Below, in pieces: positions 3,743 through 47,953 of a DNA stretch of 64,000 nt. The position numbers and the translations under genes are program-made. The DNA comes from an uncultured Chloroflexia bacterium (GTDB taxonomy: Bacteria > Chloroflexota > Limnocylindria > Limnocylindrales > CSP1-4). The notes under the pieces are model-generated. The model saw only the letters and a program-made list of their open reading frames with translations, was not told the origin of the DNA and ran no database searches. The DNA is taken from the NCBI GenBank assembly GCA_963725745.1, contig CAVRZS010000003.1, positions 428,260-492,259 on the forward strand, written 5' to 3'. Numbering within the stretch: position 1 is the first letter of the stretch; each line of letters begins with the position of its first letter.

Positions 3743-4562
3743 CTAGCTGGACGCGGGCGAGGGCTGCCCCTCGACGGGCTCGTCGATCACGAGGTCCTCG
3801 TCCCAGCGGCTGGCGTCGATCTCCGCGTGCACGTCGACCCTGCCGTCTTCGCTCGTCGCCTCCAGCGATCAGCCGCGCCGGGCGCAGCGTGAGCGCGTCG
3901 GTCTGGAGCGTGAGGTCCACGTCAACGGGCGGCAGGTCCGCTGCCTGATCGTGCGGCAGCATCAGGCCCAGGATCATCAGCGGGTCCGAGCCGGCGTCGA
4001 GGTGGACCTCGTGGCAGCGGCCGGAGGCGCTCGCGCAGGCGACCTCGCGGGTGGTGGGCACGAGTCCCGGGGTCGCGAGATACGAACGCAGCCGGTCGAC
4101 CAGCGTCAGCGGGTTGATGTCCACGCCGGCCTCCGCGGACGCACCGCCCAGCGACGCCTTCACCCAGGGGTCGTCGGGTGCCGTGCGGTACCAGGCGCCG
4201 TCCCAGACGGTCACGGTGTCCATGTCCACCTCGAGGCCATCGCTGGCGAGGTGGGTCCGGGTCTTGCCGTCCTTGGGGCGAATGTCGGCGTCGAGGGTCG
4301 TGCCGGCGAGGTCCACGGCGGCTTCGGGGCGGCCGACGAGGTTCCCGGCGATGGAGCCCGAGATCGTGCCCTCGAAGTGCACGGCGGAGGCGTCCAGGGT
4401 CGCCTGGAGCGAGCGCGCGATCATCTCCTTGGGGTCGGTCACGCGGTCGGCCGGCACCGCCGGCGCCAGCGGTCCGACGCCGAACACCGTCCCGGCTCCG
4501 AGCACGATCAGCACCAGGACGCCGACCACGGTGAGGCCCGCGAAGACGCCGGACTTGGACAT
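3743..4562 (-). CDS. Membrane-anchored LppX/LprAFG-like (LolA-fold-like) envelope protein; frame broken by one extra base near 3862-3875
   Basis: ATG at 4562: MSKSGVFAGLTVVGVLVLIVLGAG (TM anchor), then SLQATLDASAVHFEGTISGSIAGNL...VWDGAWYRT. After ...TLRPARLIA the tracked frame turns Arg-rich. The +1 frame gives a plausible end, LEATSEDGRVDVHAEIDASRWDEDLVIDEPVEGQPSPASS-TAG (stop 3743..3745). The span is 820 nt = 3n+1. Confidence 0.5.
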
Positions 4563-4688
4563 CGAGTCGCTGCTCCAATGGCGAGCCGGGCGCTGGCTCG
4601 GGGTCGTCTGTGTCGGGAGACAGGCTCGCCCCTGTCGTCCGAATCGGTCAAACGGCCAGAGGCACATCCGCCCGACAACGAGGAACGA

Positions 4689-4715
4689 CCCCCGGAGGCT
4701 GTCGCCTGCCGGGGG
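4689..4715 (-). terminator. Hairpin downstream of groEL (candidate intrinsic terminator)
   Basis: The plus strand reads CCCCCGGAGGC-TGTC-GCCTGCCGGGGG, an 11-bp GC stem with one bulge, 18 nt after the groEL stop. On the minus strand it is followed by TCGTTCCTCGTTGTC. Confidence 0.4.
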
Positions 4716-4732
4716 CCGTGTGTTGTCTCGGG

Positions 4733-6418
<1,686 letters not shown>

Positions 6419-6727
6419 TCAGTCCTCGACGATCGCGAGGATGTCCTTCTGGCTGACGATCAGCAGGTCGTCGCCCTCGACCTTGAACTCGGTCCCGGCG
6501 TACTTCGCGTACAGGACCTTCTGGCCGACGGAGACGTCGATCGCCTCGCGTGAGCCGTCGTCGAGGATCTTGCCCGGCCCGACGGCCAGGATCTCGCCCT
6601 CCTGGGGCTTCTCCTTTGCCGTGTCCGGCAGGACGATGCCGGACTTCGTCATCTCCTCACGCGGGGTGGGCTTGATGACGACGCGGTCGCCCAGCGGCTT
6701 GAGCTTCGTCGAAGAGGCGGTGGCCAA
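6419..6727 (-). CDS. groES: Co-chaperonin GroES (Cpn10)
   Basis: [52 protein letters not shown]...IVED. TTG start at 6727, preceded by GAGGAGGA 7 nt upstream. The longer tracked ORF to 6931 is upstream read-through. Confidence 0.9.
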
Positions 6728-6934
6728 CGTGCAATCCTCCTCTGACAGCCGCGAACCGGCCGTCAAATGGCCTGTGATGTGGACACGGGTCCTCCGGGGC
6801 GGGCTGCCCCAACTGGCCCGAGTGCAGGTCGTCGAGTGCATCTGGCCGGTTGCCGCGGACCGGTCGCGCCCACCGCTTCGGGGTGTCGTCCCGAGGGCGG
6901 GTCCGCCGGCCGCAGCCAGAACCATTAGCACTCT

Positions 6935-8920: not shown

Positions 8921-8943
8921 GGGCCGATGCTATGCCGAGCGCC

Positions 8944-9216
8944 CTACACCTCGTCGACCGCCACCTCCTCGGCCCACAGGCGCGACCCCAGGTAGAAGCC
9001 GAGCAGGGCGTCGAGGAAGGCATCGCCCTCGTCAAGGGTGAGCACGCGGCCGCGCTCGTCCCGCCCACCCTGGGCGATCAAGAACTCGATCCCCTCGCGC
9101 TCCTCCGGGATGAGCACCTCGACCTCGGCCGCTTCGCCCGGTTCGCGGACGGTCAGGCGGGCGAGTGGCTCGATGACGGCGTCAGGTGTGCGACTGAGGA
9201 GGAGGACGGCCCTCAC
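8944..9216 (-). CDS. Small acidic hypothetical protein (90 codons), translationally coupled to the giant upstream gene
   Basis: GTG start at 9216..9214 overlaps the TGA of the 1388-aa ORF (GTGA). Sequence: VRAVLLLSRTPDAVIEPLARLTVREPGEAAEVEVLIPEEREGIEFLIAQGGRDERGRVLTLDEGDAFLDALLGFYLGSRLWAEEVAVDEV. I recognise no family. Confidence 0.5.
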   Translation of the reverse strand: MRAVLLLSRTPDAVIEPLARLTVREPGEAAEVEVLIPEEREGIEFLIAQGGRDERGRVLTLDEGDAFLDALLGFYLGSRLWAEEVAVDEV

Positions 9217-12200
9217 GGGGCGGCCTGCTGCTTCTTGTGCATGTCGCCGATCATGATGTCCAGCCGGTGCACGAACCCTTCGATGGCGGCATCGCCGACG
9301 AACGGCCGGATCTTCTCGATGAACTCCGCGCGGTTCTTCGAGATGCCCTCGAGCTTCGTGACGAGGTCGGGCGGGTACTTCTCGGGCAGGTCCCGCGTGA
9401 ACCCCTCGATGCTGGCGCGGTCCTTCGTGCTCGTGAACGACAGCGCATGATCGATCGGCGTGAGCTTGAGCTGACCGTTCTGGAACTCGTACAGGTAGTT
9501 CCCGAAGTTGGCGCCGCGGTCGACGTTGTTGATGAGGTAGTCGAGGGCATCCATGTTGACCATGGCGTCCCGGAACTCCTGGGACTCGATGAGCCGCTTG
9601 AATGCCGCGTGGTCCTTGCGGGCGAGGTCCGCGAGCGAGTTCGACTCACGCCACTCGATCAGCACGCCCTGCTTGCCTTCGATCGTGACGAGCTGCCCCT
9701 GGGGTGCGGCCTCGTACCCCAGCTCCTTCGCCACCATGCCCCCCGCGACCTCTCGCGGCGCCTGCTGGCCCTCGACGATGCCCCGCTCGACGGCTCGTTC
9801 GATGCGGACGGTATTGCCGTCGCGGTCGACGAGGTGCTCGGCCTCGGTCGGCTTGAACAGGTACTTCTTGGTGGGGTCATTCGAATCCTTGACCACCCAC
9901 GACTTCTCGGCCGTGGTGCCTGCCGTGAGCTGGTCGCCGGTGCGCACGTATCGACCTTTCTCCTCGGGAGCGTATTTTGCCGTCGGGGTCGAGGGCGCGG
10001 CGTTCTCGCCGCTCGCCGGCAGATCGCGCCCGGAATGCTGGCCGGCCCGCCCCTCGATGTTCATCTTGACCAGGTCGTCGTACTTGTAGACGGGCTCCGG
10101 CGACGGCGTCAGGTCGTGCGGGACCTTCGACTTGGGGAGCAGGCCGCCCTGGTCCGGCGTCGGGGGACGGATCGCGGGTTGGTTGCCACCAGGCGGCGGG
10201 CCGCCCGGACCGGGTTGACCCGGGGCCACCCCGCCGGGGCTCGGGCCTTTCTTGATGGCCCCTCCCGTGCCGGCGACATCCGCACCGGTCTGGGCGCCAA
10301 CGGGCGGCGGGCCCTTCTTGATCGCCCCTCCCGTGCCGGCGACATCCGCGCCGGTCTCGGCGCCAACCGGTCCTTTGTTGGCACGGCCGTCTGGCGCTGT
10401 TCCCCCACCCGGCTCGGGAATGGGCGCTCTGCCTGCGAGCCCGTCCGGCGCGGTCTCCCCGCCTGCGGGTCCTGGGGGCGTGGCCGGCGGTCGCTCATGG
10501 ATGCCGGTGCCCGGGGTCGTCTCGGCGCCGGGCGTGGGGCCGGCGGGTGCGGCCGGGGCGCGCGGTGGGAACGTTCCCGGGGTCGTCTCGGCGCCGGGCG
10601 TGGGGCCGGCGGGTGCGGCCGGGGCGCGCGGTGGGAACGTTCCCGGGGTCGTCTCGGCGCCGGGCGTGGGGCCGGCGGGTGCGGCCGGGGCGCGCGGTGG
10701 GAACGTTCCCGGGGTCGTCTCGGCGCCGGGCGTGGGGCCGGCGGGTGCGGCCGGGGCGCGCGGTGGGAACGTTCCCGGGGTCGTCTCGGCGCCGGGGGTC
10801 GGGCCGGCGGGTGCGCCTCCGCCCGTTCGACCACCACCACCGCCGCCACCGCCAGTGCCGCCGCCGCCACTGCTGCCGCCGCCACCGCCGCCGCCGGTGA
10901 TGGCCTCGGCTCCGCCGATCGGGATCGCGGGCTCCTTGGGGCCGCCGGGAGCCTTCGTCGGCGTGGCCGTGTCGTGCCCTCCCGTGGCGGTCGGTGACTT
11001 CGTCACGAGCGCCGGCACCAGCGCCCCGGCCGCACCACTGAGCGCGTCGCCGGTCGTCACCTCGCCGACCCCAGCGCCGACGCCCACCTGGACGAGCTTG
11101 CCGGCGACGCCACCCTGCATGACCTTCGGCAGCAGCTGTGTCCCGTGGCCGGCGATGCCGCCCAGCGTGCCCCCGACCATCCCCTCGCCCGGCTTGCCGC
11201 CCGACGCGAGGTTCTGCGCCTCGTTGACGAACCCCTCGGCGAGCACCTGGCCGCCCTTCGCCGCAAATCCCTCGCCGCCGGCCGCGAGCACGCCGCCGAC
11301 CTGGCGGGTCGCCGCCGGCGCGATCGCCCCCGCCCCGATCACGCCGCCCTGCCACGTGCGGCTCATGAGCTTGCCCGCGTCGTGGTCACCAGTGGCGAGC
11401 TGGCGCGAGCCCTCGCCGACGAACGCGCCGCCCGCGCCGGCCCCGACCGCGGTGACGCCGACGGCCCACGCCGGAGCCGTCGCGAGCGCGGCCTCGCCGG
11501 CGATCGGCACGAGCGAGACGAGCGCGACCTGGACAATCGACATCGTCGTCGCGAGGCGGCGGTATCCCCGGTCGAGGTCGGCGTCGTACTCCGCCTCGGC
11601 CTTGACCCGCTGCTCGACGCCGGGCTTCTCCTGGATGATCAGCTTGAAGGCACCGACGTAGTCGCCCGCGTCGATCAGGGTCTTGACCCCCTTGTCGCGC
11701 AGGATCCGGAGGCGGTTGACCTCGAGGTCGAAGCTGCCCGGGTCGTCCGCACCGCCCAGGAATCCGAGGATGCGCAGCTTCGTTCGCGAGTTGCCGAGCT
11801 TGATCGAGTCGTAGTCGTCGCGGGCGCGGACCAGGGCGCTGTAGATGCTCTGCATGTAGCCCTTGAGGGCCTCGCGTGCCTTCTCGTGCAGCCCGAGCGC
11901 CTGGGCCTCCCAGATCTGGATGGTCGTGGGGCCGTTGGTGATGGTCCAGATCCCGGGCTTGTCGGACTTGACGAGGTGGCTCTGGATGACGCTCAGCGCG
12001 TTCTGCACATCCTCGATCCCGAGCTGCTCGGCGAGGCCGGCCTTGCCGCTGGGGCCGAAGTTCTCGGCGATCTTCTGGCGCAGCTTCACCTCGCCGGGCG
12101 CGCGCTGCTTCGTGAGCACCGCCTCGAGGTTCCCGCCGTGGACCGCGGCGTAGTGGGCGTTGAGGATCGACTTGGTCTGCTCGACCCGACCCGCCACCTC

Positions 12201-13379
12201 GCCGATGTCGAGCCCGATGATGTTGAAGTTGGCGCCGCGCTGCAGGGCGTACCGGATTTCGCCCTCGAGCGAGCGGAACTTCACGAGCGCGGCGTACGCC
12301 GATCCCGCCTTCTCGGTCCGGGCAAGGATGAGCGCCGCCCGCAGGGACTCGACGAGCTGGACGTGGCGGCTGGTCGCGTGGCTGCCGACCTTCACGGCGC
12401 TGAGCCGGCCCCGGACCTTCTCGTTGATCTCCTTGATGCCCGATGAGACGGCGATGTCCGCGCGGCCCGCCGTTTCCTCGCGGACGATCCCGGGGCCGGA
12501 CTCGCCCATCTGCGCGTTCTCCCACAGCAGGAGGTGGATCGCGAAGATGGTCTCGTTGAGATCCTCGTAGCTCTCCGCCTGCGGCACGTCCTGGCGGCCC
12601 TTCGCGGCGCCCAGCCGCTTGTTGACCATCGCGATCTGGTCGGCCACGGCGGCGAGCGGTGCGCCCGGCAGGTTGAGCCGCTTCGCCTCGGCGACGGCGT
12701 CGAGCATCCGTGCGGACACGCGCGGCCACGACCCGGCCGCCTTGCGCCGGTTGTCCGGGTCGGCGTCCTGGGCCCCGATGAACACGGTCCGGACGCTCCA
12801 CAGCAGCGACCGGTGCGCGGAGGACAGGTCCTTGCCGAAGCGGACGGAGTCGAGCCCGGCCCCGCCCCTGTTGATGAGGGCGGCCGCGAGGTCCTGGAAG
12901 CCGTTGACCAGGTCGGCGTACGAGTCGAAGGATGGGCCCGAGCCGCGGGGCTTCGTGGTCCCACCGGGCTTCGTCGCCCCGCGCGGCGGGGCCGGCGCGG
13001 GCGCCCGCTGGACGCTGAGCGCCTGGGCGCGCATCAGGCCGGCCACCGCGCGGTTGCCGGCCGAGCGCTGCAGGGCGTTCACCTGCGATCGCGCCAGCCG
13101 ATCCACGGGATCCGCGGGCGTCCAACCGACGAGCGCGCTGCCCTCGTCGGGCGTCTCCTCCGGTTCGGGAGCCGGCGTGCGGGGCGCCTCGACCGCCCGC
13201 TGGCGAGAGCGCGCAGCCCGGGACGGCTGCGCCTTCACGACACGGCTGCGCCCGCGCGCGGCGACTCGCCGCCGCCAGGGACGAGCGCTCCGTCGGGGGG
13301 TTTGGTCGCGAACGAGCCCGGGGCCATCGTGCCCGAGCGTCGGCCAGGCGAGCGAGCCCCACAACCGGGCGGCGGGCAA
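9213..13379 (-). CDS. 1388-aa mosaic protein: LQRSAGNRAV-type N-terminal leader, long helical region, Gly-zipper/TM block, poly-Gly and Pro-rich tandem repeats, C-terminal type-II PI3/PI4-kinase-like domain
   Basis: A single uninterrupted ORF. The C-terminal 233 aa carry KKYLFKP, LDYLINNVDRGANFGNYLY and LTPIDHALSF. The start is uncertain: TTG at 13379, with alternative in-frame GTGs downstream. Confidence 0.8.
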   Translation of the reverse strand: MPAARLWGSLAWPTLGHDGPGLVRDQTPRRSARPWRRRVAARGRSRVVKAQPSRAARSRQRAVEAPRTPAPEPEETPDEGSALVGWTPADPVDRLARSQVNALQRSAGNRAVAGLMRAQALSVQRAPAPAPPRGATKPGGTTKPRGSGPSFDSYADLVNGFQDLAAALINRGGAGLDSVRFGKDLSSAHRSLLWSVRTVFIGAQDADPDNRRKAAGSWPRVSARMLDAVAEAKRLNLPGAPLAAVADQIAMVNKRLGAAKGRQDVPQAESYEDLNETIFAIHLLLWENAQMGESGPGIVREETAGRADIAVSSGIKEINEKVRGRLSAVKVGSHATSRHVQLVESLRAALILARTEKAGSAYAALVKFRSLEGEIRYALQRGANFNIIGLDIGEVAGRVEQTKSILNAHYAAVHGGNLEAVLTKQRAPGEVKLRQKIAENFGPSGKAGLAEQLGIEDVQNALSVIQSHLVKSDKPGIWTITNGPTTIQIWEAQALGLHEKAREALKGYMQSIYSALVRARDDYDSIKLGNSRTKLRILGFLGGADDPGSFDLEVNRLRILRDKGVKTLIDAGDYVGAFKLIIQEKPGVEQRVKAEAEYDADLDRGYRRLATTMSIVQVALVSLVPIAGEAALATAPAWAVGVTAVGAGAGGAFVGEGSRQLATGDHDAGKLMSRTWQGGVIGAGAIAPAATRQVGGVLAAGGEGFAAKGGQVLAEGFVNEAQNLASGGKPGEGMVGGTLGGIAGHGTQLLPKVMQGGVAGKLVQVGVGAGVGEVTTGDALSGAAGALVPALVTKSPTATGGHDTATPTKAPGGPKEPAIPIGGAEAITGGGGGGGSSGGGGTGGGGGGGGRTGGGAPAGPTPGAETTPGTFPPRAPAAPAGPTPGAETTPGTFPPRAPAAPAGPTPGAETTPGTFPPRAPAAPAGPTPGAETTPGTFPPRAPAAPAGPTPGAETTPGTGIHERPPATPPGPAGGETAPDGLAGRAPIPEPGGGTAPDGRANKGPVGAETGADVAGTGGAIKKGPPPVGAQTGADVAGTGGAIKKGPSPGGVAPGQPGPGGPPPGGNQPAIRPPTPDQGGLLPKSKVPHDLTPSPEPVYKYDDLVKMNIEGRAGQHSGRDLPASGENAAPSTPTAKYAPEEKGRYVRTGDQLTAGTTAEKSWVVKDSNDPTKKYLFKPTEAEHLVDRDGNTVRIERAVERGIVEGQQAPREVAGGMVAKELGYEAAPQGQLVTIEGKQGVLIEWRESNSLADLARKDHAAFKRLIESQEFRDAMVNMDALDYLINNVDRGANFGNYLYEFQNGQLKLTPIDHALSFTSTKDRASIEGFTRDLPEKYPPDLVTKLEGISKNRAEFIEKIRPFVGDAAIEGFVHRLDIMIGDMHKKQQAAP
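10243..10372 (-). repeat. Two imperfect 66-bp tandem units inside the giant ORF (encode GA.TGADVAGTGGAIKKGP)
   Basis: gggcctttcttgatggcccctcccgtgccggcgacatccgcaccggtctgggcgccaac is repeated 66 nt later with a few mismatches. Confidence 0.7.
10510..10815 (-). repeat. 66-bp tandem repeat, 4 identical copies plus a diverged partial fifth, inside the giant ORF (22-aa unit APAAPAGPTPGAETTPGTFPPR)
   Basis: The unit cccggggtcgtctcggcgccgggcgtggggccggcgggtgcggccggggcgcgcggtgggaacgtt starts at 10510, 10576, 10642 and 10708. The partial copy from 10774 has 2 mismatches. Confidence 0.9.
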
Positions 13380-15098: not shown

Positions 15099-16526
15099 TC
15101 AGTCCGCCGCGACCGGGGCCGGGGCGGGACCCGGCACGGCGGCGGCCAGCGGCCGCCGGAGCAGGAACAGCACCGCGACGAGGGCCAGCGCGAACACGAT
15201 GACCCGGCTGACGAAGGCCGCGTGGGAGCCCGGCATCAGGTCGGTCGCGCCGGGAGCCAGCACGTAGTCGAACGCGGCCGCCGGGATCGCGACGCCCAGG
15301 GCCGATCCCACCTGGCGCAGGGAGTTGAACACGCCCGCCGCGATGCCGGCGTCCTCGGGCCGGAACTCCGACAACGCCGTCACCGTGCTCGCGACGACGC
15401 CCAGCGCGATCGGCACGCCGCCCAGCGCCCCGACGGCGGACACGACCAGGAACGGCGTCGTGGCGTCGAAGGTGGCCATCAGCACGGCCGCCACGAGCGC
15501 GAACACCAGGCTCCAGACCATGACCCTCGACGCCCCGAGGCGGGCGACGATCCCCGCGGCCCGCGGGAACAGGATGGCCGCGAGCAGGGGCCACGGCAGC
15601 AGCACGAGCGCGGTCTCGGTCGGCGTCAGGCCGCGGACGCCCTGGAGGTAGACCGCGAGCTGGATCGACCCGGACAGAATCCCGAACCACGCCGCGGCAC
15701 CCACCAGCGTCGAGGCGACGAACGCGCGGCTGCGGAAGATCTCGAGGTGGACGGCGGGCTCGGCGGCCGACCGTTCGCGCCACACGAAGGCGATCAGCGC
15801 GACGACGGCGAGCGCGAAGCCGCCGATCACGGCCGCGGACGTCCAGCCCCACACGTCGCCCTGGAGGAGTGCGCCGTTGATGCCCAGCAGCACGAGGCTG
15901 CCGAGGACGAGGCCCGGCCCGTCGAGCGGCCGGTGGCGCCCGGCGGCGGCGCGGGGCAACGCGATCCAGGCCATCGTCGCCACGCCCAGCGCGAGCGGGA
16001 CCTGCGCCCAGAAGATCCCCGACCAGCCGACCAGGCTCGCCAGGAGCCCCCCGACCAGCGGGCCGACGACCGCGGCGATCGCGCCGGCGGCGAAGTACAG
16101 CCCGAGCGCACGGCCGCGCGCGGCCCCCTGGTACGTCGCGGAGATGGCCGCCAGCCCGATCGTCAGCAGCGCCGCGCCGCCAACCCCCTGCACGACCCGG
16201 CCCGCCAGGAGCACCCCGTAGGACGGGGCGAGGGCGCTGGCCAGCGCGCCGGCCGCGAACAGGAGGCCGCCGACGGCGAGCACCCGCCGGTGGCCGTAGC
16301 GATCGCCGAGGCGGCCGACGGCGAGGATCGACACCGCGTACGGCAGCACGTATGCGCTGACCGTCCAGGCGAGGGTCGATTGCCCGACGCCGAACGCCTC
16401 GCCGATGACCGGCAGGGCGAGGTTGACGATCTGGAGGTCGAGGTTCGCGGTGAAGGCCGCCAGGACGGCGACCGCGACGATCGCCGACGGGCGGCGCGTT
16501 GCCGCCGGACGGCCGCCGGGGGTCAT
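15099..16526 (-). CDS. MFS transporter, DHA2 (EmrB/QacA-like, 14-TMS) family
   Basis: ATG at 16526: MTPGGRPAATRRPSAIVAVAVLAAFTANLDLQIVNLALPVIGEAFGV...GRLGDRYGHRRVL... with many TM segments to the stop at 15099. In the track it is fused to the upstream lyase ORF. Confidence 0.85.
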   Translation of the reverse strand: MTPGGRPAATRRPSAIVAVAVLAAFTANLDLQIVNLALPVIGEAFGVGQSTLAWTVSAYVLPYAVSILAVGRLGDRYGHRRVLAVGGLLFAAGALASALAPSYGVLLAGRVVQGVGGAALLTIGLAAISATYQGAARGRALGLYFAAGAIAAVVGPLVGGLLASLVGWSGIFWAQVPLALGVATMAWIALPRAAAGRHRPLDGPGLVLGSLVLLGINGALLQGDVWGWTSAAVIGGFALAVVALIAFVWRERSAAEPAVHLEIFRSRAFVASTLVGAAAWFGILSGSIQLAVYLQGVRGLTPTETALVLLPWPLLAAILFPRAAGIVARLGASRVMVWSLVFALVAAVLMATFDATTPFLVVSAVGALGGVPIALGVVASTVTALSEFRPEDAGIAAGVFNSLRQVGSALGVAIPAAAFDYVLAPGATDLMPGSHAAFVSRVIVFALALVAVLFLLRRPLAAAVPGPAPAPVAAD

Positions 16527-18056
16527 GGCGCCGCGGCGACCTCCGCCAGCGCCGCGTCGAGCAGCTCGCCGCACAGCACCCCGCGCCACCGCGGCGTGGA
16601 CCAGCGCCGCCGGCGGGTTGGGGCCCAGCGGCTCGCGGACCCGGCGGATGACGTCGAATGCGGCCGAGATGGCGGGCGGGAGGGGCCGCCCGGTGGGCGC
16701 CACGATAGCCATGGTCGACGTGGTGAGCAGCTCGATCGCGAGCACGTCCTCCAGGAGCCCGAGCGCCTCGTCCGTCCGTTGCGCGGTCAGCGCCGCGTTC
16801 GTGGCGTGGTCCTCGACCCCGAGATCCAACGGGCCGATGTCGAGCGTCGCGGGCTGCGCCGCGAGTCGCAGCTCGGCGTAGCGCACGGCCGCGGTGTAGC
16901 GCAGCAGCCCGCCGCCCTGCGCGATGAGCTCTGCGACCGACTCGCCGAACAGCAGCTCGGCCAGCGACGCCCACAGGTGATTCATCCGGCGGTCGGACAG
17001 CTGGCCGACGTGCGCGATCGCCGGCCGCAGCGCATCGAGCCCGAGCGCCATCGCCATGGGGTGGAAGTTGCCGTTGCTGAGCATCCGCCCCGTGGCGATG
17101 TCGACGAGCGGGTTGTCGTCCATCGCGTTGACCTCGATCGAGACCGACCGCGCGAGGATGTCGATGAACTCGCGGAACGCGCCATGGACCTGGGGACCGA
17201 CCCGGAACGAGAGCGGGTCCTGGACGGATTTGGGCACGCCGGGGGTGAACAGCTGGCTGCCGCCGAGGAACGCCCGGATGTCGGAGCCGGATGCGGCCTG
17301 GCCCGGGACCGCCTTGGCCGCGAGCACGGCGGGGTCGAGGACCGACGGATTGCCGGACATCACCTCGAGCCCGGAGGCGAGCGTGAGGTCCGCGATGCGC
17401 GCGATCTGCCGTGCGTGCTCCGCCACCAGCGCCGCATGCCCGATCGACACCCCGTTGGCGGAGATGAGCGCGAGGCCGTCCTTGGGCTCCAGCACGACGG
17501 GCGAAAGGCCGGCGGCGCGCAGCGCGTCGGCGCCCGACACCGTCTCGCCCCGATACTCCGCACGGCCGCGACCGATGAGCACCTGGGCGATGGCGGCCAT
17601 GTGCATCAGGTCCGACGCACCCACGGAGCCGGTGGTCGCGACGATCGGGTGGATGCCGGCGTTCAGCAGCGCGGCCAGCCCCTCGGCGGCCGGCAGGCTC
17701 GCGCCCGAACCGCCGCGGGCGATGCCGTTGAGGCGGACCGCCATCGCGGCCCGCACCACCGGGGTCGGCAGGGGCTCGCCGATCGCGCCCTCGTGCGCGT
17801 TGACAATCATCTCCTGGTACTGACGCAGCGTCTCGCGGGGCACCCGGACGTCGCGCATGTGACCGAGCCCGGTGTTGAGCCCGTAGATCAGCGCCGGACC
17901 GTCGACCAGCGCGTCGACGACGGCCCGGGACGCGCGGATCCGGTCGATCGCGTCCGGGCCGAGCTCGACCCGTGCGCCATGCGCGACTCGCAGCAGGTCG
18001 TCCATGCGCAGGTCGGCCGCGCCGATCTGGACCGCGTCGCTCGCGTCGACCGTCAT
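16523..18056 (-). CDS. Aromatic amino-acid (histidine/phenylalanine) ammonia-lyase family protein lacking the Gly of the Ala-Ser-Gly MIO triad; last ~20 codons reached only after a 1-nt frame correction near 16580
   Basis: YGLNTGLG, GSVGAS-DLMHMAAI (canonical GSVGASGDLAPLA), VQDPLSFRVGPQVHGA, DDNPLV, NGNFH. The alternative frame after ...AAVARG gives VLCGELLDAALAEVAAAP-TGA, overlapping the MFS ATG as ATGA. The span is 1534 nt = 3n+1. Confidence 0.8.
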
Positions 18057-31860: not shown

Positions 31861-33402
31861 TCAGAAGAACCCCTGGGCCTTGGGGTCGTAGCTCACGAAC
31901 AGGTTCTTGGTCTGGGTGTAGTGGTCGAGCATCATCTTGTGGGTCTCGCGACCGACGCCGGAGGCCTTGTAGCCACCGAACGGGGCGCCCGCGGGATACA
32001 TGTGGTAGCAGTTCGTCCAGACGCGACCGGCCTTGATGGCCTTGCCCATCCGGAACGCCCGGTTCATGTCGCGGCTCCAGACGCCGGCCCCGAGGCCGTA
32101 CATCGTGTCGTTGGCGATCTCCAGGGCCTCGGCCTCGTCCTTGAACGTGGTCACGGCCAGGACGGGCCCGAAGATCTCCTCCTGGAAGATCCGCATCTTG
32201 TTGTGGCCCTTGAGGACCGTCGGCTCGAAGTAGTAGCCATCGGCGAGCTCGCCCGGGAGCACGTTTCGATGTCCACCGATCAGGAGCTCGGCACCCTCGT
32301 CGAGGCCGATCTTCACGTAGCGCGTGATCTTCTCGAGCTGCGCGGTGGAGACCTGCGCGCCGAGCGTCGTGTGGATGTCGAGCGGGTGGCCCTGCTGGAT
32401 CTTCTCGATCCGGCCGAGGCAGCGCTCGATGAACGGCTCATAGATGGACTCCTGGATGAGCGCACGTGACGGACACGTGCAGACCTCACCCTTGTTGAAC
32501 GCGTACAGGACGAGCCCTTCGATCGCCTTGTCGAAGAATTCATCGTCGCTGGTCAGGATGTCCTCGAAGAAGATGTTCGGGGACTTGCCGCCGAGCTCGG
32601 TGGTCGAGGGGATCAGGTTCTGTGCCGCGTACCCCATGATCATCCGGCCCGTGGCCGTCTCGCCGGTGAACGCGACCTTCGCGATGCGCTTGCTCGAGGC
32701 GAGGGCCATCCCCACCTCCGCGCCGGGGCCGTTGACGACGTTGATGACGCCGGCCGGGACGATGGGCTCGATGAGCTCCATCAGCTTCAGGATCGACCAC
32801 GGGGTCGGGCTGGCCGGCTTGACGACCGTCACGTTGCCGGCTGCGATCGCCGGGGCGATCTTCCACGCCGCCATGAGGAGCGGGAAGTTGAACGGGATGA
32901 TCTGGCCGACGACGCCGAGCGGCTCGCGGAACTGGTACGCGATCGTGTCCTTGTCGATCTCGGAGATCGATCCTTCCTCGCCGCGGATCACGCTGCCGAA
33001 GTAGCGGAAGTGGTCGGAGGCGAGCGGCAGGTCGACGGCCAGCGTCTCGCGGACCGGCTTGCCGTTGTCCCAGCTCTCCGCGACCGAGAGCATCTCCCGG
33101 TTGGCGTCGATGACGTCGGCGACCGCGTTGAGAACCCTCGATCGCTCGGCCGTCGATGTCTCGGCCCAGGCGTCCTTCGCCTTGTGCGCTGCGTCGAGGG
33201 CGAGCTCGACGTCATCGCCGGTCGAGCGCGGCACCTCGGTGATCGGCTTGCCCGTCGCCGGGGTCAGGTCAACCTGATAGCCACCCTTCACCGGCGCGAC
33301 CCAGCGCCCGCCGATGAAGTTGTCGTATCGCTCCTTGAGCGGAACGGGGCTCCCGGACATCCCGGGCGGTGCATAGGTGAACTCCTTGTCGAGAACGGCC
33401 AC
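31861..33402 (-). CDS. NAD(P)-dependent aldehyde dehydrogenase (~513 aa)
   Basis: GTG at 33402, preceded by AAGGAGG (33407-33413). [14 protein letters not shown]...FIGGRWV...WDNGKP...FTGETATG...ELGGKSP...EEIFGPV...YGLGAGVWS. The tracked 749-aa ORF upstream part is non-coding repeat read-through. Confidence 0.9.
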
Positions 33403-33610
33403 GGTGCCTCCTTGTCCCATTCGGGACGGGCGCCAGTGTCTGGCGCCAGGGCTTGGTCCGGGGGACTCCCGGCCCACCATGTGGGTTACACCGGCGGGAT
33501 CCCGGATGCCTAGAGGACGACGGCCTGAAAGCGGTCCGGCCGTCGGCCACGACGCTCGGGGTACGCGCCTGCTCGGCGGCGCGCCGTCGGGGATGTGCCA
33601 GGCTCCGCGC

Positions 33611-34110
33611 GACGTGCGCCGGGCGACCAACGCGGCGCCGCCGCCACGGGATGCGCGCCCGGCGACCATCCGCGGTTGCCGCCGCCACGGCTGCGCGCCC
33701 GGCGACCACTCCAGCGGTTCTTCCGCTGGTTCGCACGCCCGGCGACCAGATCGCCGGTTTCGGGGCACAGAACCGGCACCTTGCACGCCCGGCGACCCGA
33801 ACAGCCGGTTCGCCCGCTGCAGTGAACGCCGGGCGACCAACGCGGTCGTCGCGGCCGCGGCTGTGCGCCCGGTCCAGCCGCTGGCGATCCCGGTCCTGCC
33901 CGCTGCGCTTTCGACGCGCGCTCGCGCTGATCCCGGTCTCCCGCCCGGCGCGCGCCCGCTGCGCGCCCAGCGTTCACTGCAGCCGTTCATCCGCTGGATC
34001 GCACGGTGGCGGCGCCCAGATTGCCGGTTTCCAGGCGCAGAACCGCCAGGCTGAACGCTGGGCGCCCAGATCAGCCGCTTCACCCGCTGCAGTGAACGCT
34101 CGGCGACCAT
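33611..34110. repeat. Array of degenerate ~40-nt GC-rich repeats with core GCGCCCGGCGACCA plus short hairpins; includes a ~130-nt segment duplicated 270 nt apart and an inverted CTGCAGTGAACG copy
   Basis: Core copies start near 33615, 33652, 33692, 33734, 33782, 33823, 33862, 34007, 34052 and 34092. Hairpins include CCAGCGG-ttctt-CCGCTGG (33710-33728) and GCCGGTT-N11-AACCGGC (33753-33777). GCTGCAGTGAACGC occurs at about 33816 and 34086, and its reverse complement at about 33970. Confidence 0.6.
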
Positions 34111-41340: not shown

Positions 41341-42657
41341 TCAGCCTTGACCGGACTCCGTGCCGCCCGCGCTCGACGCCGAGGCGGCGCTCCCGGTGCC
41401 GTTCTCGGCCCCCGCCTGCTCGGCGGGAACGGTCGTATCGGCCATCGCCGCCATCGCCGCCGTCGCCCCGGCCGCGGCCGCGGTGGCCTCCGCAACCGTC
41501 GTCGGCGCCGGCTCCAGGGGGGCCGCTGCCGCGACCGTCTCGGGCTGGGGAACGGGCGCCGCCGAGACCGGCTGCGCGTCATCGCCGTAGGCGACAGCGC
41601 GCAGCGAGTCCTCGACCCGCTCGGCGAAGTGGCAGGCCACCTGGTGGCCCTCGCCGAGGTCGCGGAACTCGGGCACCTCGGCCGAGCACCGCTCGGGGTT
41701 GCCCAGGCGCTCGCGCAGCCAGCAGCGCGTATGGAACCGGCACCCGGACGGCGGTGCCGCCGGCGACGGCACGTCGCCCTGGAGGACGATCCGCGGCTTG
41801 CGGACGCGGGGATCGGGGTCCGGCACGGCCGACAGGAGCGCGACCGTATACGGATGCAGCGGGTGGTCGTAGAGCTCCTGGGCCGTGGCCAGCTCCGCCA
41901 TCTTGCCCAGGTACATCACGCCGACGCGGTCGCTGATGTAGCGCACGACCGAGAGGTTGTGGGCCACGAACAGGTAGGTGAGCGAGAACTGTTCGCGCAG
42001 GTCCAGGAGCAGGTTGAGCACCTGGGACTGGATCGACACGTCGAGGGCGGAAACGGGCTCGTCCGCGAAGATGAACTCCGGGTCCAGCGCGATCGCCCGC
42101 GCGATGCCGATCCGCTGGCGCTGGCCGCCGGAGAACTCGTGCGGGTAGCGGCGGGCATAGTCGCGTCGCAGGCCGACCACCTCGAGGTAATCGCCGACCC
42201 GCTTGTCGCGGACCGCGCGCTTGCCCCAGCCGTTCTCCTCGGTCGCCTGCGCCAGCAGGCCCTCCCCGATCAAGTCGCTGACGGGCATGCGCGGGTTCAG
42301 GGAGGCGACCGGGTCCTGGAACACGATCTGCATCCGGCGGCGGACGGTCTTCTTGTCGACGCCGGCGAACCCGATGATCTCCTTGCCGTCGAGCAACGCG
42401 CTGCCGCCGGTGGCCTTCTCGAGGTTGAGCAGCGTGCGGCCGAGGGTCGTCTTGCCGCAGCCGGATTCACCGACCAGGCCCAGGACCTCGCCGCGCTTGA
42501 TGTCGAAGCTCACGCCGTCGACCGCGTACACGTGACCCGCGACGCGGCGCAGGATCCCCGCCCGGATCGGGTAGTAGGTCTTGAGGTCCTTGATGGACAG
42601 CATGGTCTGGCCCTTGACGCCCCAGTCCGTGCCCCTGCCCTTCTCGGAGACGGTCAT
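41341..42657 (-). CDS. Oligopeptide/dipeptide ABC transporter ATP-binding protein (OppF/DppF-like) with ~100-aa Ala-rich C-terminal tail
   Basis: The ATG at 42657 overlaps the upstream stop (ATGA). [17 protein letters not shown] ([13 protein letters not shown]), [18 protein letters not shown]. Confidence 0.9.
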
Positions 42658-43730
42658 GAGACCGCCTCGGGCGCCGGCGCGTCGTACTCGGCCAGGCGAG
42701 CCTTGAACCGCTCGTCGTGGAGCCAGCAGCGCGACGCGCGCTCGGGACCCAGGGCGATCAGGTCGGGCTCCGATTCGTTGCAAATCTCCCACGCGTAGTT
42801 GCAGCGCGGGGCGAACTTGCAGCCGGCCGGCATCCGGAACGGGTTGGGCACGACCCCGCGAATGGCTGACAGCCGTTGGCCGAGCTTGGCCGTCGAGGGA
42901 ATCGAATCGAGCAGGCCGCGCGTATATGGATGGCGGGGGTTGAGGAGCACCTCCTCGACCGTGCCCGTTTCCACCACCCGGCCGCCGTACATCACGGCGA
43001 TGTCGTCCACGGTCTCGGCGACGACGCCGAGGTCGTGGGTGATCAGCAGGAGCGCCGTGCCGGTGCGGTCCTGGATTCCCTTGATCAGCTCCAGGATCTG
43101 GCGCTGGATCGTGACGTCGAGCGCCGTCGTCGGCTCGTCGGCGATGATCAGGCGCGGGCTGCAGCTGAGCGCCATGGCGATCATGATCCGCTGGCGCATG
43201 CCACCCGAGAGCTCGTGCGGGTACTGCGTCAGCCGCCGCTTGGGGTCAGGGACGCCCACGTCCATCAGCGACTTGAGCGCGATCTCCTTGGCGCCCTTCT
43301 TGTCCACGTCATGGTGAAGCAGGACGGCCTCTGAGATCTGGTCGCCGACCGTCAGCACGGGGTTGAGCGACGTCATCGGCTCCTGGAACACCATCGCAAT
43401 CTCGCTGCCGCGGATCTTGCGGATCTCGTCGTCCGACAGCTTGAGCAGGTCGGTGCCGTCGAACAGGATCTCGCCACTGACGATCTTGCCCGGGGGCGAG
43501 TCGATGAGCCGCATGATCGAAAGGGCGGTGACGCTCTTGCCGGAGCCCGACTCGCCGACCACGGCCAGGCGCCCACCCTTGCGCAACTGGAAGCTGACGC
43601 CGTCCACCGCCTTGACGGTGCCATCGAGGACGTTGAAATGGGTGTGCAGGTCGCGGACGTCGAGGAGGACATCCCCGACGCCCGCCCGGCGCACGCGTGC
43701 TGAGGCCTCGGGTATCGCCTGCCCCGTCAA
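42654..43730 (-). CDS. Oligopeptide/dipeptide ABC transporter ATP-binding protein (OppD/DppD-like)
   Basis: The TTG at 43730 overlaps the permease stop (TTGA). [36 protein letters not shown]. Confidence 0.9.
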
Positions 43731-44695
43731 ATCTTTGCTCGCGGGTCGAGCGCGTCCTGCAGGCCGTCCCCCATGAAGTTGATCCCCAGCACGATGATGA
43801 CGATCGCCAGGCCCGGGAAGCACGCCCACCACCAGTTGCCGACGGAGATGTACTCCAGCGACCCGCTGAGGATGTTGCCCAGCGTCGGCGTGGTCACGGC
43901 GACCCCGTAACCCAGGTAGCTCACGAACGCCTCGCCGATGATCACCGAGGCGACCGACAGCGTGGCCGCGACGATGATCGGCGACAGCGAGTTGGGCAGC
44001 AGGTGGCGGAAGATGATCCGTCTCGACGACACCCCGGCGGCCCGCGCGGCATCGACGTAGTCCTCTTCGCGCAGCTGCAGCAGCACGCTGCGCACGAGTC
44101 GGGAGATCCCGAGCCAGCCGAACAGGCCGAAGATCAACGTGACCGAGACCCAGCTGCCGGCCCCGAGGAAGCGGGTGAACACGAGGATCAGGAACAGGAT
44201 CGGCAGCGCCAGCAGGGAGTCGACGATCCGCATCAGCAGCGCGTCCGTGCGGCCCCCGAAGTAGCCCGCGGCGCCGCCGACGAGCGTACCCAGGACCACG
44301 GAGATGGACGTGGCAAGGACCCCGATGACGAGCGAGAAGCGGATGCCGTTCATGACCAGCACGAACACGTCGCGCTGGAGGCCGCCGGTCTCGCCGAACG
44401 GCCGGAACGGCACGAGGCTGGGCGGACGACCAGCATGCACGAACTGGTCGGGCGCCGGGATCTTGAGGTAGTCAAAGGGGAGGAAGATCGGCGCCACCAA
44501 TCCCAGCACGCACATGCCCAGGAACAGCGTGGAGCCGACGACGGCCATGCGGTGGCGCTTGAACCGCTTCCACGTCAGCTGGAATTGGTTGAGCGACTCG
44601 AGCTGGACGTCGTAGTCGGGCGAGGCCGCGTCCGTCGGCGCGATCTCCTCGATCTCGGCGGGGATGACGGCGTGGAGCGGTTCAGACTTGTTCAT
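43727..44695 (-). CDS. ABC transporter permease (OppC/DppC-like)
   Basis: ATG 44695: MNKSEPLH...; TM segments and the BPD_transp_1 EAA-like loop ([23 protein letters not shown]). Confidence 0.9.
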
Positions 44696-44697
44696 GA

Positions 44698-45795
44698 TCA
44701 ACCGTAGCTGATGCGGGGATCGGCGATTCCGTAGATGACGTCCGCCAGGAGGTTGGCGAACACGACGATGACGGCCGTGACGACGAGGATGCCCATCAGC
44801 ACCGGGTAGTCGAAGTTGCCGGTCGCCTCGATGAACGCCCGGCCCATCCCCGGCCAGCTGAAGATCGTCTCGGTGACGATGGCGCCGGCGAACAGGAACG
44901 GCAGCTCGAGGCCGATGTTCGTGATCACGGGCAGCAGGGCATTGCGCAGCGCGTGCTTGCGCATCACGCGCTTCTCTGACACGCCCTTGGCCCGTGCGGT
45001 GCGCACGTAGTCGCGGTTGATGGCATCGATCATCGACGCCCGGATGAAGCGCGAGTCGGCCGCGATGTTGACCACGACCAGGGTAATCACCGGCAGGATC
45101 AGGTGGCTGGCCATGTCGGTGAACGCCTGGATCGGGGTGGATCGCACGAACTCCCAGTACGCCTCCGTCCCGAAGGCCGGCGTGGTGCGCGGATTCCACA
45201 TCCCGCCAGCCGGCAGCCAGTGCAGCGTGCCGGCGAACACGATGATCAGCATCAGTCCCAGCCAGAAGGTCGGGAACGAGTAGCCGACGTAATTGAAGAT
45301 CGTGATCGCGTTGTCGGTCTTGCTGTACCGCTTCACCGCGGCCGTCACGCCCAGGATGAACGCGAGCACGATCCACACCACGAGCGCCGTCCCGGCGAGG
45401 ATTGCCGTCGGCAGCAGGCGGGCGGCGATCACCGAGGTCACCGGCTCACCCGATGTCGTGGAGTAGCCGAAGTCGAGGTGGACGATGCCGTTGTCCCCAC
45501 CGCCCAGGAACTGCGGCAGGATGTTCGGCAGCCCGGTGTCGCTGAGGAGGATCCCAAGCCCCTGTCCGTCGGGGTTGCACGCCCCGAGCCAGCGGCAGTA
45601 CTGGATCGGCACCGGCTGATCGAGTCCCCAGCGATGGCGCATCGCCGCGATCTGCTCCGGCGTGATCTTGGGGTTGGAGAGGAACCTGGCCTCGGGGCCG
45701 CCCGGGGCGGCGAGGAGGATCCCGTAGATCAGGATCGAGGTGAAGAACAGCGTCGGTATCGCCCCGAGGACCCGGCGAATGATGTAGGCACCCAT
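44698..45795 (-). CDS. ABC transporter permease (OppB/DppB-like)
   Basis: 365 aa: MGAYIIRRVLGAIPTLFFTSILIY...DYVRTARAKGVSEKRVMRKHALRNALLP. Confidence 0.92.
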   Translation of the reverse strand: MGAYIIRRVLGAIPTLFFTSILIYGILLAAPGGPEARFLSNPKITPEQIAAMRHRWGLDQPVPIQYCRWLGACNPDGQGLGILLSDTGLPNILPQFLGGGDNGIVHLDFGYSTTSGEPVTSVIAARLLPTAILAGTALVVWIVLAFILGVTAAVKRYSKTDNAITIFNYVGYSFPTFWLGLMLIIVFAGTLHWLPAGGMWNPRTTPAFGTEAYWEFVRSTPIQAFTDMASHLILPVITLVVVNIAADSRFIRASMIDAINRDYVRTARAKGVSEKRVMRKHALRNALLPVITNIGLELPFLFAGAIVTETIFSWPGMGRAFIEATGNFDYPVLMGILVVTAVIVVFANLLADVIYGIADPRISYG

Positions 45796-45911
45796 CGTGC
45801 GCTCCGTCGCTGGAAGGGAGACACGGGACCGACTGCCGAGGCGTGACGGTCCCGTGCCCGATGTGTCGTTGCGGTGACGCAGGGGTCCTGCGTCACCGCG
45901 TCAAGCGAAGG

Positions 45912-47762
45912 CTATTCGCTCTTCCACCAATCCTCGATGTTCCACACCTGCGTGGCAGCCGTGGAGTTGTTCACGACGTTGTGCATCTTGGCCTTGTTGG
46001 CCAGGAGCACGGTGCGCCAGTTGTAGAGGGGGACCTCCGGGAACCCGTTGGCCGGGTCCTGGTAGATCGTCTGGATCTTGCCCATGTCGTCCTTGATCTT
46101 CAGCAGATCGACCGAGCGAAGGCTCTCGTCGAGGGCCGCGTCAACGTCGGCGTTGTGCAGCCGGATGTAGTTCGCACCGGCGTGCGTCGGGTTGGTCGTG
46201 GGATCGAACGAGGAGTGGTACACCCCGTAGTTGCCCAGCGGATCGGGGGTGTTGACCCAGGCGAACTCCGTCACGTCGTAGTTGCCGTGGGTGAGGTTGC
46301 AGGGGACGTCTGCCCCGGGCTCGTTCCAGCCCGCGAACAGGATGCTCGGATCCGCGGCCAGGTTGGTGAGATCGAACTTGATGCCGAGCTCGGCGGCCTG
46401 GGACGCGACCAGGGTGAGGGTGTCGAGGCGGTACTGGCGGTCGGCGCGGGTGCAGGCTTGCAGCACGACGGGCGTCCCGTTCGGGGCGACGAGGTTGCCG
46501 TCGGCGCCCTTGGTGAAGCCCGCGTCGCTCAGGATCTGGGCGGCCTTGGCCGGGTCGTGCTCATAGCACGGGATGTCCTTGTAGGCCCAGGCGAGCGGCG
46601 AGAACATGGCGCACGACGGAGTGGCCGTCCCACCCAGGACACGCTGGTTGATGGCGTCCTTGTCAGTGGCGTAATGCAAGGCCTCGAGCAGCGCCTTGGC
46701 GCCGTCGGCGCCGAACTTGGTCGTCAGGGACGCCAGGTTGTAGGAGTTGTGCTCGTAGGTCAGGCCGTCGATCACGTCGACGTCTGCGGGCGGGACCTGG
46801 CTCGCCTGGAGGGCGGGCAGGTTGGTGTGGTTCATCTCGAGCGCGACGTCGACTTCGTCGTTCGCGTAGCCCGCGATCAGGGCGTCGACCGTCGAGTAGA
46901 ACCGCAGCGTGTAGGCGTCGAAGGGCGTATCGGCCTTCTTGATCGTCTTCCAGAACGCGTCGTTCGGCTTGAAGTCGACCTGTGCGCCGGCCGCCCAGTT
47001 GGTCGGATGCCAGGGGCCGCTGTAGACGCCCGACTCCGGGTCGGCCTGCGTGTACAGCTTGGTGAATGCGTCTGCCGCGGGCACCGTGCTGATGTAGTGC
47101 TTGGGCAGGAGCGGGGCGAACAGGCCGAGGAACGGCTCGTAGATCTTCGAGAAGTGGAGGACGCACGTGCTGCCCGTCCCACCGTCGATGGCCGAGATGT
47201 CCTCGTAGCCCTGGGTGCCCGTGACCGTGCCCGCGTTGGTCGGGTCGAGCTGCCACTTCCACTGGTAGCTGAGGTCGTCGCAGGTGATCGGCTGTCCGTC
47301 GGACCACTGGGCGCCCTCGATCAGCTTGATCGTGACGTCCATGCCGCCGGAGTCGTTGAGCACGACGCCGCCGTTGTCGACGGTCGGGACCTCGGTGGCC
47401 AGCTGGCCGTAGTACTTCAGGTCGGCGGTGTTGCCGAAGAGGCTCCACAGCGAGCCGCCGAAGGCGTCGGTGTCGCCCGCGAAGTTGTCGTAGATGCCCC
47501 ACCAGATGGTGTTGGCCTCGCCGGACGTGCCGACGACGAGCTTGCCGCCCGTGTGCCCGACCGCCTCCGCCTTATAGGTCGTGGTGGTCAGGTCCGGGGG
47601 AATGGCCGCGGCGCTCGGCGACGCAGCGGGCCCTGAGGGCGATGACCCAGCCGCTGAAGGTGCGGCCGCCGACGCGGCCGGCGAGGCGGTTGAGGTCGTC
47701 CCGCCGCACGCTGCGACGACGATCGCCGCAGTGGCCAGCAGGCCCCAGAAACGTTTGTGCAT
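45912..47762 (-). CDS. Family-5 peptide/nickel ABC substrate-binding lipoprotein (canonical segment order)
   Basis: ATG 47762 after GGAGGAG. MHKRFWGLLATAAIVVAACGG (lipobox), a Ser/Ala/Pro linker, then SBP_bac_5-type blocks. Confidence 0.88.
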   Translation of the reverse strand: MHKRFWGLLATAAIVVAACGGTTSTASPAASAAAPSAAGSSPSGPAASPSAAAIPPDLTTTTYKAEAVGHTGGKLVVGTSGEANTIWWGIYDNFAGDTDAFGGSLWSLFGNTADLKYYGQLATEVPTVDNGGVVLNDSGGMDVTIKLIEGAQWSDGQPITCDDLSYQWKWQLDPTNAGTVTGTQGYEDISAIDGGTGSTCVLHFSKIYEPFLGLFAPLLPKHYISTVPAADAFTKLYTQADPESGVYSGPWHPTNWAAGAQVDFKPNDAFWKTIKKADTPFDAYTLRFYSTVDALIAGYANDEVDVALEMNHTNLPALQASQVPPADVDVIDGLTYEHNSYNLASLTTKFGADGAKALLEALHYATDKDAINQRVLGGTATPSCAMFSPLAWAYKDIPCYEHDPAKAAQILSDAGFTKGADGNLVAPNGTPVVLQACTRADRQYRLDTLTLVASQAAELGIKFDLTNLAADPSILFAGWNEPGADVPCNLTHGNYDVTEFAWVNTPDPLGNYGVYHSSFDPTTNPTHAGANYIRLHNADVDAALDESLRSVDLLKIKDDMGKIQTIYQDPANGFPEVPLYNWRTVLLANKAKMHNVVNNSTAATQVWNIEDWWKSE

Positions 47763-47939: not shown

Positions 47940-47953
47940 CCCCCATCCGGGGG
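47940..47953 (-). terminator. Short GC hairpin after gcvPB (weak terminator candidate)
   Basis: The minus strand reads CCCCC-GGAT-GGGGG followed by ATTTGAC, about 10 nt after the stop. Confidence 0.3.

Follow-up and report, generated by a model that had tools for sequence, protein, structure and literature searches.

Why does a 4.17-kb gene built from five unlike parts sit in a string of housekeeping genes? The question is raised by a 64-kb stretch of DNA from a soil Chloroflexota bacterium (hereafter the window), in which one giant open reading frame (ORF) of 1388 codons occupies positions 9213..13379 of the minus strand, between metG and tatD. We consider it fairly probable, from comparisons of its sequence, that this giant gene encodes a modular effector of the polymorphic-toxin type, made by a Chloroflexota lineage for a contractile injection system (CIS) of the extracellular (eCIS) or Photorhabdus virulence cassette (PVC) type. 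An earlier model-made note, written from the letters of the window alone (the sequence-only reading), had proposed a delivered or membrane-inserted effector with a kinase warhead, and several of its claims could be followed up.

The giant ORF opens with TTG, and its true start is likely the GTG at 13238 (codon 48), giving a protein of 1341 amino acids, because conservation among homologues begins at about codon 48 and takes in a GWTPADP motif (residues 85-91) ahead of the N-terminal leader. GC content at third codon positions (GC3) is about 0.8-1.0 over most of the minus-strand frame, which identifies the ORF as one real coding gene; it dips to 0.63-0.67 only at a poly-Gly run and in the 3' part of the linker, and codon positions one and two follow the usual coding pattern. 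The plus strand of the same interval translates into stop-ridden nonsense. All five parts described by the sequence-only reading were found again in this single ORF, to which we add the minus strand and the uncertain start. Its remark that there is no signal peptide agrees with the hydropathy profile, in which no hydrophobic segment precedes residue 608 and no signal-like stretch was found in the first 600 residues, no dedicated signal-peptide predictor having been run. Compared as a whole with Pfam and NCBIfam, the protein returned a sub-threshold kinase as its sole match. PADLOC gave no match, which makes a known anti-phage defence system unlikely. The giant protein was absent from the results of both protein-database searches, although the adjoining 90-residue protein has a database entry at 100% identity (P0169), and the giant gene may be uncalled or flagged as a pseudogene in the public record.

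The C-terminal domain (residues 1081-1388; 9216..10139, minus strand) is, by sequence profile and predicted structure, a kinase resembling type II phosphatidylinositol 4-kinases (PI4KII). As a single sequence it matched Pfam PI3_PI4_kinase (PF00454) below threshold (E 0.0057, 17 bits, with the cut-off at 27.1), and a profile of 12 kinase sequences had no match in PDB. When the profile comprised 33 sequences, the PDB search returned PI4K2B (E 7e-11) and PI4K2A (E 4e-10), followed by FAM20 kinases and actin-fragmin kinase. The blocks FKPxxxE, GSxQxWV, LDYLIxNxDRxxGN and IDxxLxFP occur in the same order in the family and in PI4KII. An AF2 model of the kinase made from 12 sequences, of reasonable confidence (per-residue confidence, pLDDT, 78.5; predicted template-modelling score, pTM, 0.78), was compared with PDB by Foldseek and resembled human PI4KII alpha and beta most closely (4hne, 4wtv; E 8e-8 to 2.5e-6), with CtkA of Helicobacter, HipA and ordinary protein kinases next. 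None of the predicted catalytic residues is missing: the window protein has the ATP-binding K1176 (in YLFKP), D1287 and N1294 of the catalytic loop (in NNVDRGANFGNY) and the metal-binding D1310 (in PIDHALSF); the matching family columns (K56, D167, N174 and D190 in the numbering of alignment A4) are either invariant or at least 90% conserved. Since segment-wise profile and structure searches converge on the type II PI4K-like fold and the catalytic residues are intact, the catalytic domain had been recognized correctly from the letters alone. After PI4KII the closest matches are FAM20, actin-fragmin kinase, CtkA and HipA, which are protein or glycan kinases, and it is therefore equally possible that the predicted kinase phosphorylates a lipid or a protein substrate.

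This kinase domain is widespread. A word-indexed protein search retrieved only 10 relatives, while an exhaustive profile search retrieved 344 representative clusters with the domain at E <=0.001, 47 of them below 1e-30. In these clusters it mostly lies at the extreme C-terminus of proteins of 600-4000 amino acids, and the remainders of thirteen kinase-bearing long proteins contained no Pfam domain. At one locus (L010, 5263-13684) the kinase is internal to a frame of about 2800 codons that is split into two overlapping ORFs; no partner gene accompanies it, and CIS genes were not detected nearby.

The part of the protein that precedes the kinase belongs to a family in which one carrier bears several C-termini. 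Ten relatives from the protein search share the leader, the helical domain and the glycine-zipper block, and this N-terminal module of 780 residues recurs with unrelated C-terminal domains. The shared carrier is followed by the kinase in some of them (P0011 plus P0003, P0016); P0015 ends instead in a pretoxin-HINT (PT-HINT) domain followed by an unknown domain, and P0014 and P0017 in other unrelated sequences. In particular, P0014 and P0015 share 95% identity as far as about residue 720 but are unrelated from there on, and they occupy the same position in CIS loci whose other genes are 99-100% identical. Recombinational replacement of the C-terminus is the defining feature of polymorphic toxins (PMC3482391). 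The polymorphic-toxin layout proposed from the window alone is thus borne out by relatives that carry the same N-terminal module with different C-termini, the PT-HINT among them. A shorter relative, P0019 (649 residues; L138, 1712-3942), keeps the leader and, of the helical domain, the first half, followed by a different helical and transmembrane C-terminus; a 94-residue gene overlaps its stop codon. It adjoins dnaE and is another orphan.

The leader itself spans residues 48-135 (12975..13238, minus strand). It is rich in Arg, Ala and Pro, is predicted to be disordered (pLDDT <50), and contains the core motif NALQRSAGNRAVAGLMRAQALSVQRAP at residues 101-127 (12999-13079, minus strand). The pattern [LIVM]Q[RKQSHG]x[AVILSG]GNx[AVF] occurs within the first 120 residues of 28 out of 82 family proteins of at least 600 residues, and nowhere else across 108,000 residues of the collected family proteins. 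Searched for in DNA, LQRxAGNxAV is present in at least 120 metagenome contigs, mostly from soil. In 112 metagenome ORFs among the matches listed, the median distance between the motif and the first possible start codon is 39.5 residues, and 88% of these ORFs have it 120 residues or less from the start. Also among the matches listed, CIS genes, as recognisable with Chloroflexota references, were found at 8 of 120 leader loci and in 5 of the 25 motif-picked leader loci of at least 5 kb. At three of the CIS-bearing metagenome loci the leader ORF comes directly after the AAA+ gene, and its start lies 130-190 nucleotides (nt) past the AAA+ gene in four loci.

What follows the leader is varied. A Pfam search of ten long leader-bearing ORFs detected OmpA domains in three, eCIS_core/DUF4157 in one (L052, E 2.6e-17) with one further weak match, and no known domain in the others. 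Given these varied domains, the N-terminal position and the linkage to CIS loci, the leader is, as far as its distribution can tell, a general N-terminal tag of CIS-linked cargo. The expected enrichment of the motif was thus found both in its N-terminal position and near CIS loci, in family proteins and in soil metagenomes. The sequence-only reading had associated such leaders with actinobacterial proteins; the position of the motif and its enrichment by CIS loci hold, but the host here is a Chloroflexota, as judged from the nearest syntenic MAGs (metagenome-assembled genomes). It had also linked them to DUF4157, an association which is real (L052) but concerns only a minority of leader-bearing ORFs (4-6 of 55 by motif, 1-2 of 10 by Pfam). 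The window protein has no Pfam match to DUF4157 at E up to 1, and Pfam detected none in 13 other kinase-bearing proteins. DUF4157 is present in 36% of the known eCIS-associated toxins (EATs) and is hence frequent yet not obligatory (PMC11297309). In a published model, eCIS cargo has a disordered loading sequence at its N-terminus, in some cases DUF4157, and a C-terminal domain that varies (bioRxiv 10.64898/2026.05.27.728243). Loading sequences are reported not to be conserved between systems (bioRxiv 10.64898/2026.05.27.728243), which makes the sharp conservation of the present motif of interest.

Two further groups of sequences with the pattern deserve mention. In four soil metagenome loci (L016, L020, L050 and L073) the leader is followed by VQR[WFH]xxxEHxxLGD, with OmpA-family domains in L016 and L020 and no Pfam match of any kind in L050. 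These ORFs look like another cargo family with the same tag, and Tox-OmpA was listed among PVC systems by Zhang et al. (PMC3482391). In viral contigs, the pattern was met only in two near-identical phage tape-measure proteins (L013, 3688-3716; L014, 6693-6721) as an internal LQRLAGNYAV, probably by chance; their Gly-rich hydrophobic blocks resemble the glycine-zipper of the window protein.

Several relatives of the window gene are found next to CIS genes. When species-representative genomes were scanned with the kinase alignment, eight loci emerged, all of them in MAGs of Chloroflexota (Chloroflexia or Candidatus Limnocylindrales). At two of these (L011 and L012) a T4 gp19-like tube gene is followed by an unknown gene, Pvc16_N, WHD and AAA+, with the leader about 170 nt later. 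The leader is followed at both by the helical domain and the kinase, the glycine-zipper being matched in L011 only and the small gene being found in L012 only. L137 has the order Pvc16_N, WHD+AAA, effector, a 99-residue partner and a GerE regulator. Pvc16_N and the AAA+ ATPase distinguish eCIS loci from phage tails (PMC10020575), and GerE is a conserved eCIS regulator (PMC8213781). In L007, two tandem kinase-partner cassettes (3895-5027 and 9998-11130) lie past one AAA+ gene, each with its own leader-bearing gene; together with second or third leader-bearing ORFs in L137 and L139, they point to several effectors per locus. The kinase cassette is similarly placed by CIS genes in L008 and in L002, where the gene is frameshifted into four overlapping ORFs. 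Overall, CIS genes adjoin full-length relatives in L011, L012 and L137, and the kinase cassette in L002, L007 and L008. In L003 and L004, the carrier gene comes immediately after a baseplate operon that encodes Phage_tail_X, Phage_GPD, Phage_base_V, GPW_gp25, a baseplate-wedge protein and Tail_P2_I.

The small gene downstream of the window kinase (8944..9216, minus strand) is real, as had been proposed, and appears translationally coupled, its GTG start overlapping the TGA stop of the giant gene (GTGA). It encodes an acidic protein of 90 residues, with 20 Asp and Glu against 9 Lys and Arg, for which Pfam and PADLOC gave no match. Of the 13 distinct occurrences of the kinase inspected, 11 have a homologue of it directly 3', at identities down to about 38%, and the 4-nt overlap of start and stop is usually kept at the other kinase-partner pairs. 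The partner is absent where the same carrier has another C-terminus (L003 and L004) and beside the short relative in L138. Because the partner tracks the kinase domain and not the trafficking part, the 90-residue protein is probably an immunity protein or inhibitor of the kinase. An ORF of 172 codons on the opposite strand (8932-9450, plus strand) has a coding-like GC3. We rejected it as an antisense shadow of the kinase end and the small gene; its seeming conservation at all related loci mirrors that of the two real genes.

Between leader and kinase lies the carrier, which begins with a helical domain of 475 residues (residues 136-610; 11550..12974, minus strand). AlphaFold predicts it to be almost all helix (pLDDT 70-90), and it forms the constant part of the polymorphic family. 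The sequence-only reading had noted about 500 helical-looking residues that it could assign to no family; the model agrees, and residues ~136-610 had no match in Pfam, NCBIfam, PHROGs or PADLOC. The predicted structure of the N-terminal module found nothing significant in PDB (best E 0.24) or BFVD (best E 0.1, template-modelling scores of ~0.1), with tape-measure proteins occurring among the insignificant BFVD matches. The helical domain continues into a Gly/Ala/Val-rich block (residues 611-795; 10995..11549, minus strand; 23% G, 18% A, 12% V), a putative region of membrane insertion or translocation. Its 185 residues contain 37 small-xxx-small motifs, and one strongly hydrophobic segment of the giant protein lies at about residues 608-637. 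Composition and this single hydrophobic stretch agree with the glycine-zipper that had been described from the letters. The block is of low confidence in the AlphaFold model and is conserved along with the helical domain.

A disordered linker rich in Gly, Pro, Ala and Thr (residues 796-1080; 10140..10994, minus strand) connects the carrier to the kinase. A poly-Gly run (10830-10895, minus strand) followed by Pro-rich tandem repeats had been described here, and both were recovered; the tandem-repeat scan returned a 66-bp unit in 4.6 copies with 99% identity (10510-10815, minus strand), that is, near-exact rather than exact, and a second array of 1.9 copies of a 66-bp unit (10242-10367, minus strand). 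The linker motif T-[TI]-P-G-T-[GF]-[IP]-x-P-R-x-P (window 10485-10815, minus strand) is common to the window protein and to P0011, P0013, P0014, P0016, P0017 and P0022. It is kept whatever the C-terminal domain, and its copy number differs among homologues. The motif is missing from P0015, where the self-cleaving PT-HINT domain sits in its place. This replacement hints at a role in release, and the motif may be a site of processing, recognition or release.

Taken together, these features suggest how the effector could work. The basic disordered N-terminus, with LQRxAGNxAV followed by VQR(A)P, would act as a packaging tag and bring the protein to the particle, in analogy to known loading sequences at the N-terminus whose function requires the AAA+ ATPase of the system. 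The helical domain and the glycine-zipper would form a constant carrier, probably held in the tube lumen, inserted in the target membrane, or both, and the long Gly/Pro linker with its repeated TxPGTGIxPRxP would separate or release the warhead. The type II PI4K-like kinase would be the toxic activity, transferring phosphate from ATP onto a putative target, and the coupled acidic protein would bind and neutralise it in the producer. The copy in the window is an orphan, fixed between metG and tatD in a sub-lineage, and presumably serves a CIS encoded elsewhere in the genome. A bolder combination holds that a CIS-delivered lipid kinase phosphorylates phosphatidylinositol or a related membrane lipid in soil eukaryotes or in bacteria with inositol lipids (for example Actinobacteria), that the 90-residue protein is a new kinase inhibitor, and that LQRxAGNxAV is the universal packaging signal of a large class of soil CIS; we regard this joint version as quite unlikely.

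Some observations speak against an injected effector. This copy is an orphan and the 64-kb window contains no CIS genes, so that delivery of the window protein by a CIS is something we only infer from its relatives. CIS of the Streptomyces type can act within the very cell that makes them instead of on others (PMC10020575, PMC11126660), and delivery to another cell would accordingly not be assured. In Pfam, PHROGs, PDB and BFVD, no relation of the carrier to known cargo, tape-measure or DUF4157 domains was detected. On the coding strand between metG, the giant gene, the small gene and tatD, no promoter-like or terminator-like sites were found, although this is a weak test in this phylum. The arrangement metG, effector, partner, tatD, groES/groEL recurs in L001/L005 (73-87% identity) and in L006 (~60% identity), an independent short-read MAG with an intact orthologue of 1360 residues at the same place; L136 is also linked to metG, sharing that side. 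The orphan position between metG and tatD is thus present in at least three genomes (the window, L005 and L006), probably four, and the conserved order of metG, giant gene, small gene and tatD fits a domesticated cellular role equally well. In such a role, the captured effector would have become a cell-autonomous, membrane-associated kinase that now acts in envelope or stress signalling or in a growth switch resembling toxin-antitoxin systems, with the 90-residue protein as its regulator, and would enter no injection particle. Intact ORFs at syntenic positions across ~60-85% protein identity, the tight co-directional packing with metG and tatD, and the further orphan relative beside dnaE (L138) are all compatible with it. 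However, leader, carrier, linker motif and partner are all retained as in the CIS-adjacent copies, which would be needless for a purely cellular function, and orphan effectors remote from the secretion locus are common in polymorphic toxin systems (PMC3482391). We therefore judge domestication rather unlikely. The sequence-only reading had counted single-copy vertical inheritance, an invariant C-terminus and the lack of any association with a secretion locus as evidence against an effector; inheritance is indeed vertical and the C-terminus unchanged within the sub-lineage, but the wider family is linked to CIS.

Other explanations accept the architecture and assign it to a different machine, or deny that it is real. 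The protein might be a structural component similar to a tape measure, whose N-terminal part sets the length of the tube or forms a channel and whose kinase is accessory. Long helical proteins with Gly-rich hydrophobic blocks are found among phage tape-measure proteins, effectors related to tape measures have been described for the CIS of Streptomyces (PMC11126660, PMC13277306), and the insignificant BFVD matches mentioned above point the same way. PDB, BFVD (best E 0.1) and PHROGs (none) nevertheless give no significant match, which leaves the idea unsupported, and a structural protein would not be expected away from its machine, with swapped C-termini between loci that are 99% identical, or in tandem as in L007; we hold it to be very improbable. 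Slimmer still is the chance that a polymorphic toxin uses another export route, of a type VII-like or unknown kind, and lies beside CIS genes by coincidence. The lack of DUF4157 would suit this idea, as would the fact that, among the matches listed, most leader-bearing metagenome contigs show no CIS gene. But most of these contigs are 1-3 kb long and too short to include neighbours, CIS genes are carried by the fifth of the longer loci given above, the leader ORF starts 130-190 nt past the AAA+ gene in four loci, and neither WXG, LXG or RHS features nor signal-peptide features were found in the giant protein and the kinase-bearing relatives scanned. Finally, the near-exact 66-bp repeats between the N- and C-terminal halves could have joined unrelated genes during assembly, as the sequence-only reading had itself cautioned. 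The full architecture is present as one ORF in L006, L011, L012 and L137, the repeat motif is conserved, and frame and GC3 continue through the repeats, dipping only in the low-complexity stretch. The intact L006 orthologue, from an independent assembly and in the same place, excludes such a chimera for practical purposes.

A modular CIS effector, our preferred reading, has clear counterparts among known systems and departs from each of them. Polymorphic toxins of eCIS and PVC have been known since 2012, including one kinase-fold toxin in Firmicutes (PMC3482391). [quoted passage not shown] Unlike them, the window protein lacks DUF4157 and the PVC-metallopeptidase, its carrier and warhead are of undescribed families, and its gene is outside any locus. 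The Tme and Sle1 proteins of Streptomyces (PMC11126660, PMC13277306) are likewise very large, CIS-linked and coiled or helical, with hydrophobic helices, disorder and a C-terminal enzymatic or toxic domain, whereas Tme has an N-terminal DUF4157, a nuclease warhead and a gene within the cluster, and the window protein has no detectable tape-measure homology. [quoted passage not shown] That sequence is reported as unconserved between systems, unlike the leader motif described here, which is sharply conserved in very many soil proteins.

As for the warhead, human PI4K2A and PI4K2B (4hne, 4wtv) are the best match by both profile and structure. They share with the window kinase a G-loop-like SWVVKD, FKPxxxE, LDYLIxNxDR and IDxxLxF in this order and the catalytic Lys, Asp, Asn and Asp, but only ~15-20% of residues are identical. 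In addition, the window kinase has no palmitoylated CCPCC, carries an insertion of 1-2 residues in the catalytic loop and stands in a bacterial toxin-like context. The Tox-Peptide Kinase of PVC-type toxins (PMC3482391) is also a kinase-fold toxin on a PVC-type trafficking region. It is, however, of a different kinase family, being related to lanthipeptide-synthetase kinases (DxHxEN loop), and is found in Firmicutes in fusion with the PVC metallopeptidase. In the literature searched we found no description of a type II PI4K-like toxin, in line with the earlier statement that none was known; Tox-Peptide Kinase is the precedent for a kinase, from another family. The PI4K-like warhead with its partner, the carrier without DUF4157, the conserved leader motif and the stable orphan site all appear to be undescribed in the libraries and literature searched.

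Among the catalogued weapons that microbes use against each other, there are hardly any kinase toxins. If the effector reading is right, this family, with its eukaryote-like lipid-kinase fold, dedicated small inhibitor and hundreds of relatives, would contribute a toxic activity and an inhibitor scaffold that are both new. The leader might serve a major class of CIS, in Chloroflexota and in further high-GC bacteria of soil, as packaging signal. Such signals are the bottleneck when CIS particles are engineered for protein delivery, and a universal signal, if confirmed, would make such systems reprogrammable. The orphan copy suggests that effector genes can persist among housekeeping genes and be missed by screens of genome neighbourhoods.

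The rest of the window is consistent with a housekeeping region, as had been stated. With metG directly upstream of the giant gene, tatD, a DUF389 gene, groES/groEL and uvrD lie downstream, and pur genes, adenylosuccinate synthetase, aconitase and peptide ABC (ATP-binding cassette) transporters are found farther away. The groES ORF (6419-6931, minus strand) has 170 codons, with the Cpn10 domain at residues 76-168 only, and its real start is probably internal. A 985-codon ORF at 15099-18056 (minus strand) combines a complete aromatic amino acid lyase domain (residues 16-470) and a transporter domain of the major facilitator superfamily (residues 531-712), and may be a true enzyme-transporter fusion; the related MAG L001, an assembly full of frameshifts, has two gene calls for them. 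An aldehyde dehydrogenase ORF (31861-34110, minus strand) has an extension of ~280 residues before its domain and lies in a stretch of lower GC content (0.65). The region of the peptide ABC transporters (42000-48000) has a GC content of 0.66-0.69, compared with 0.72-0.76 elsewhere.

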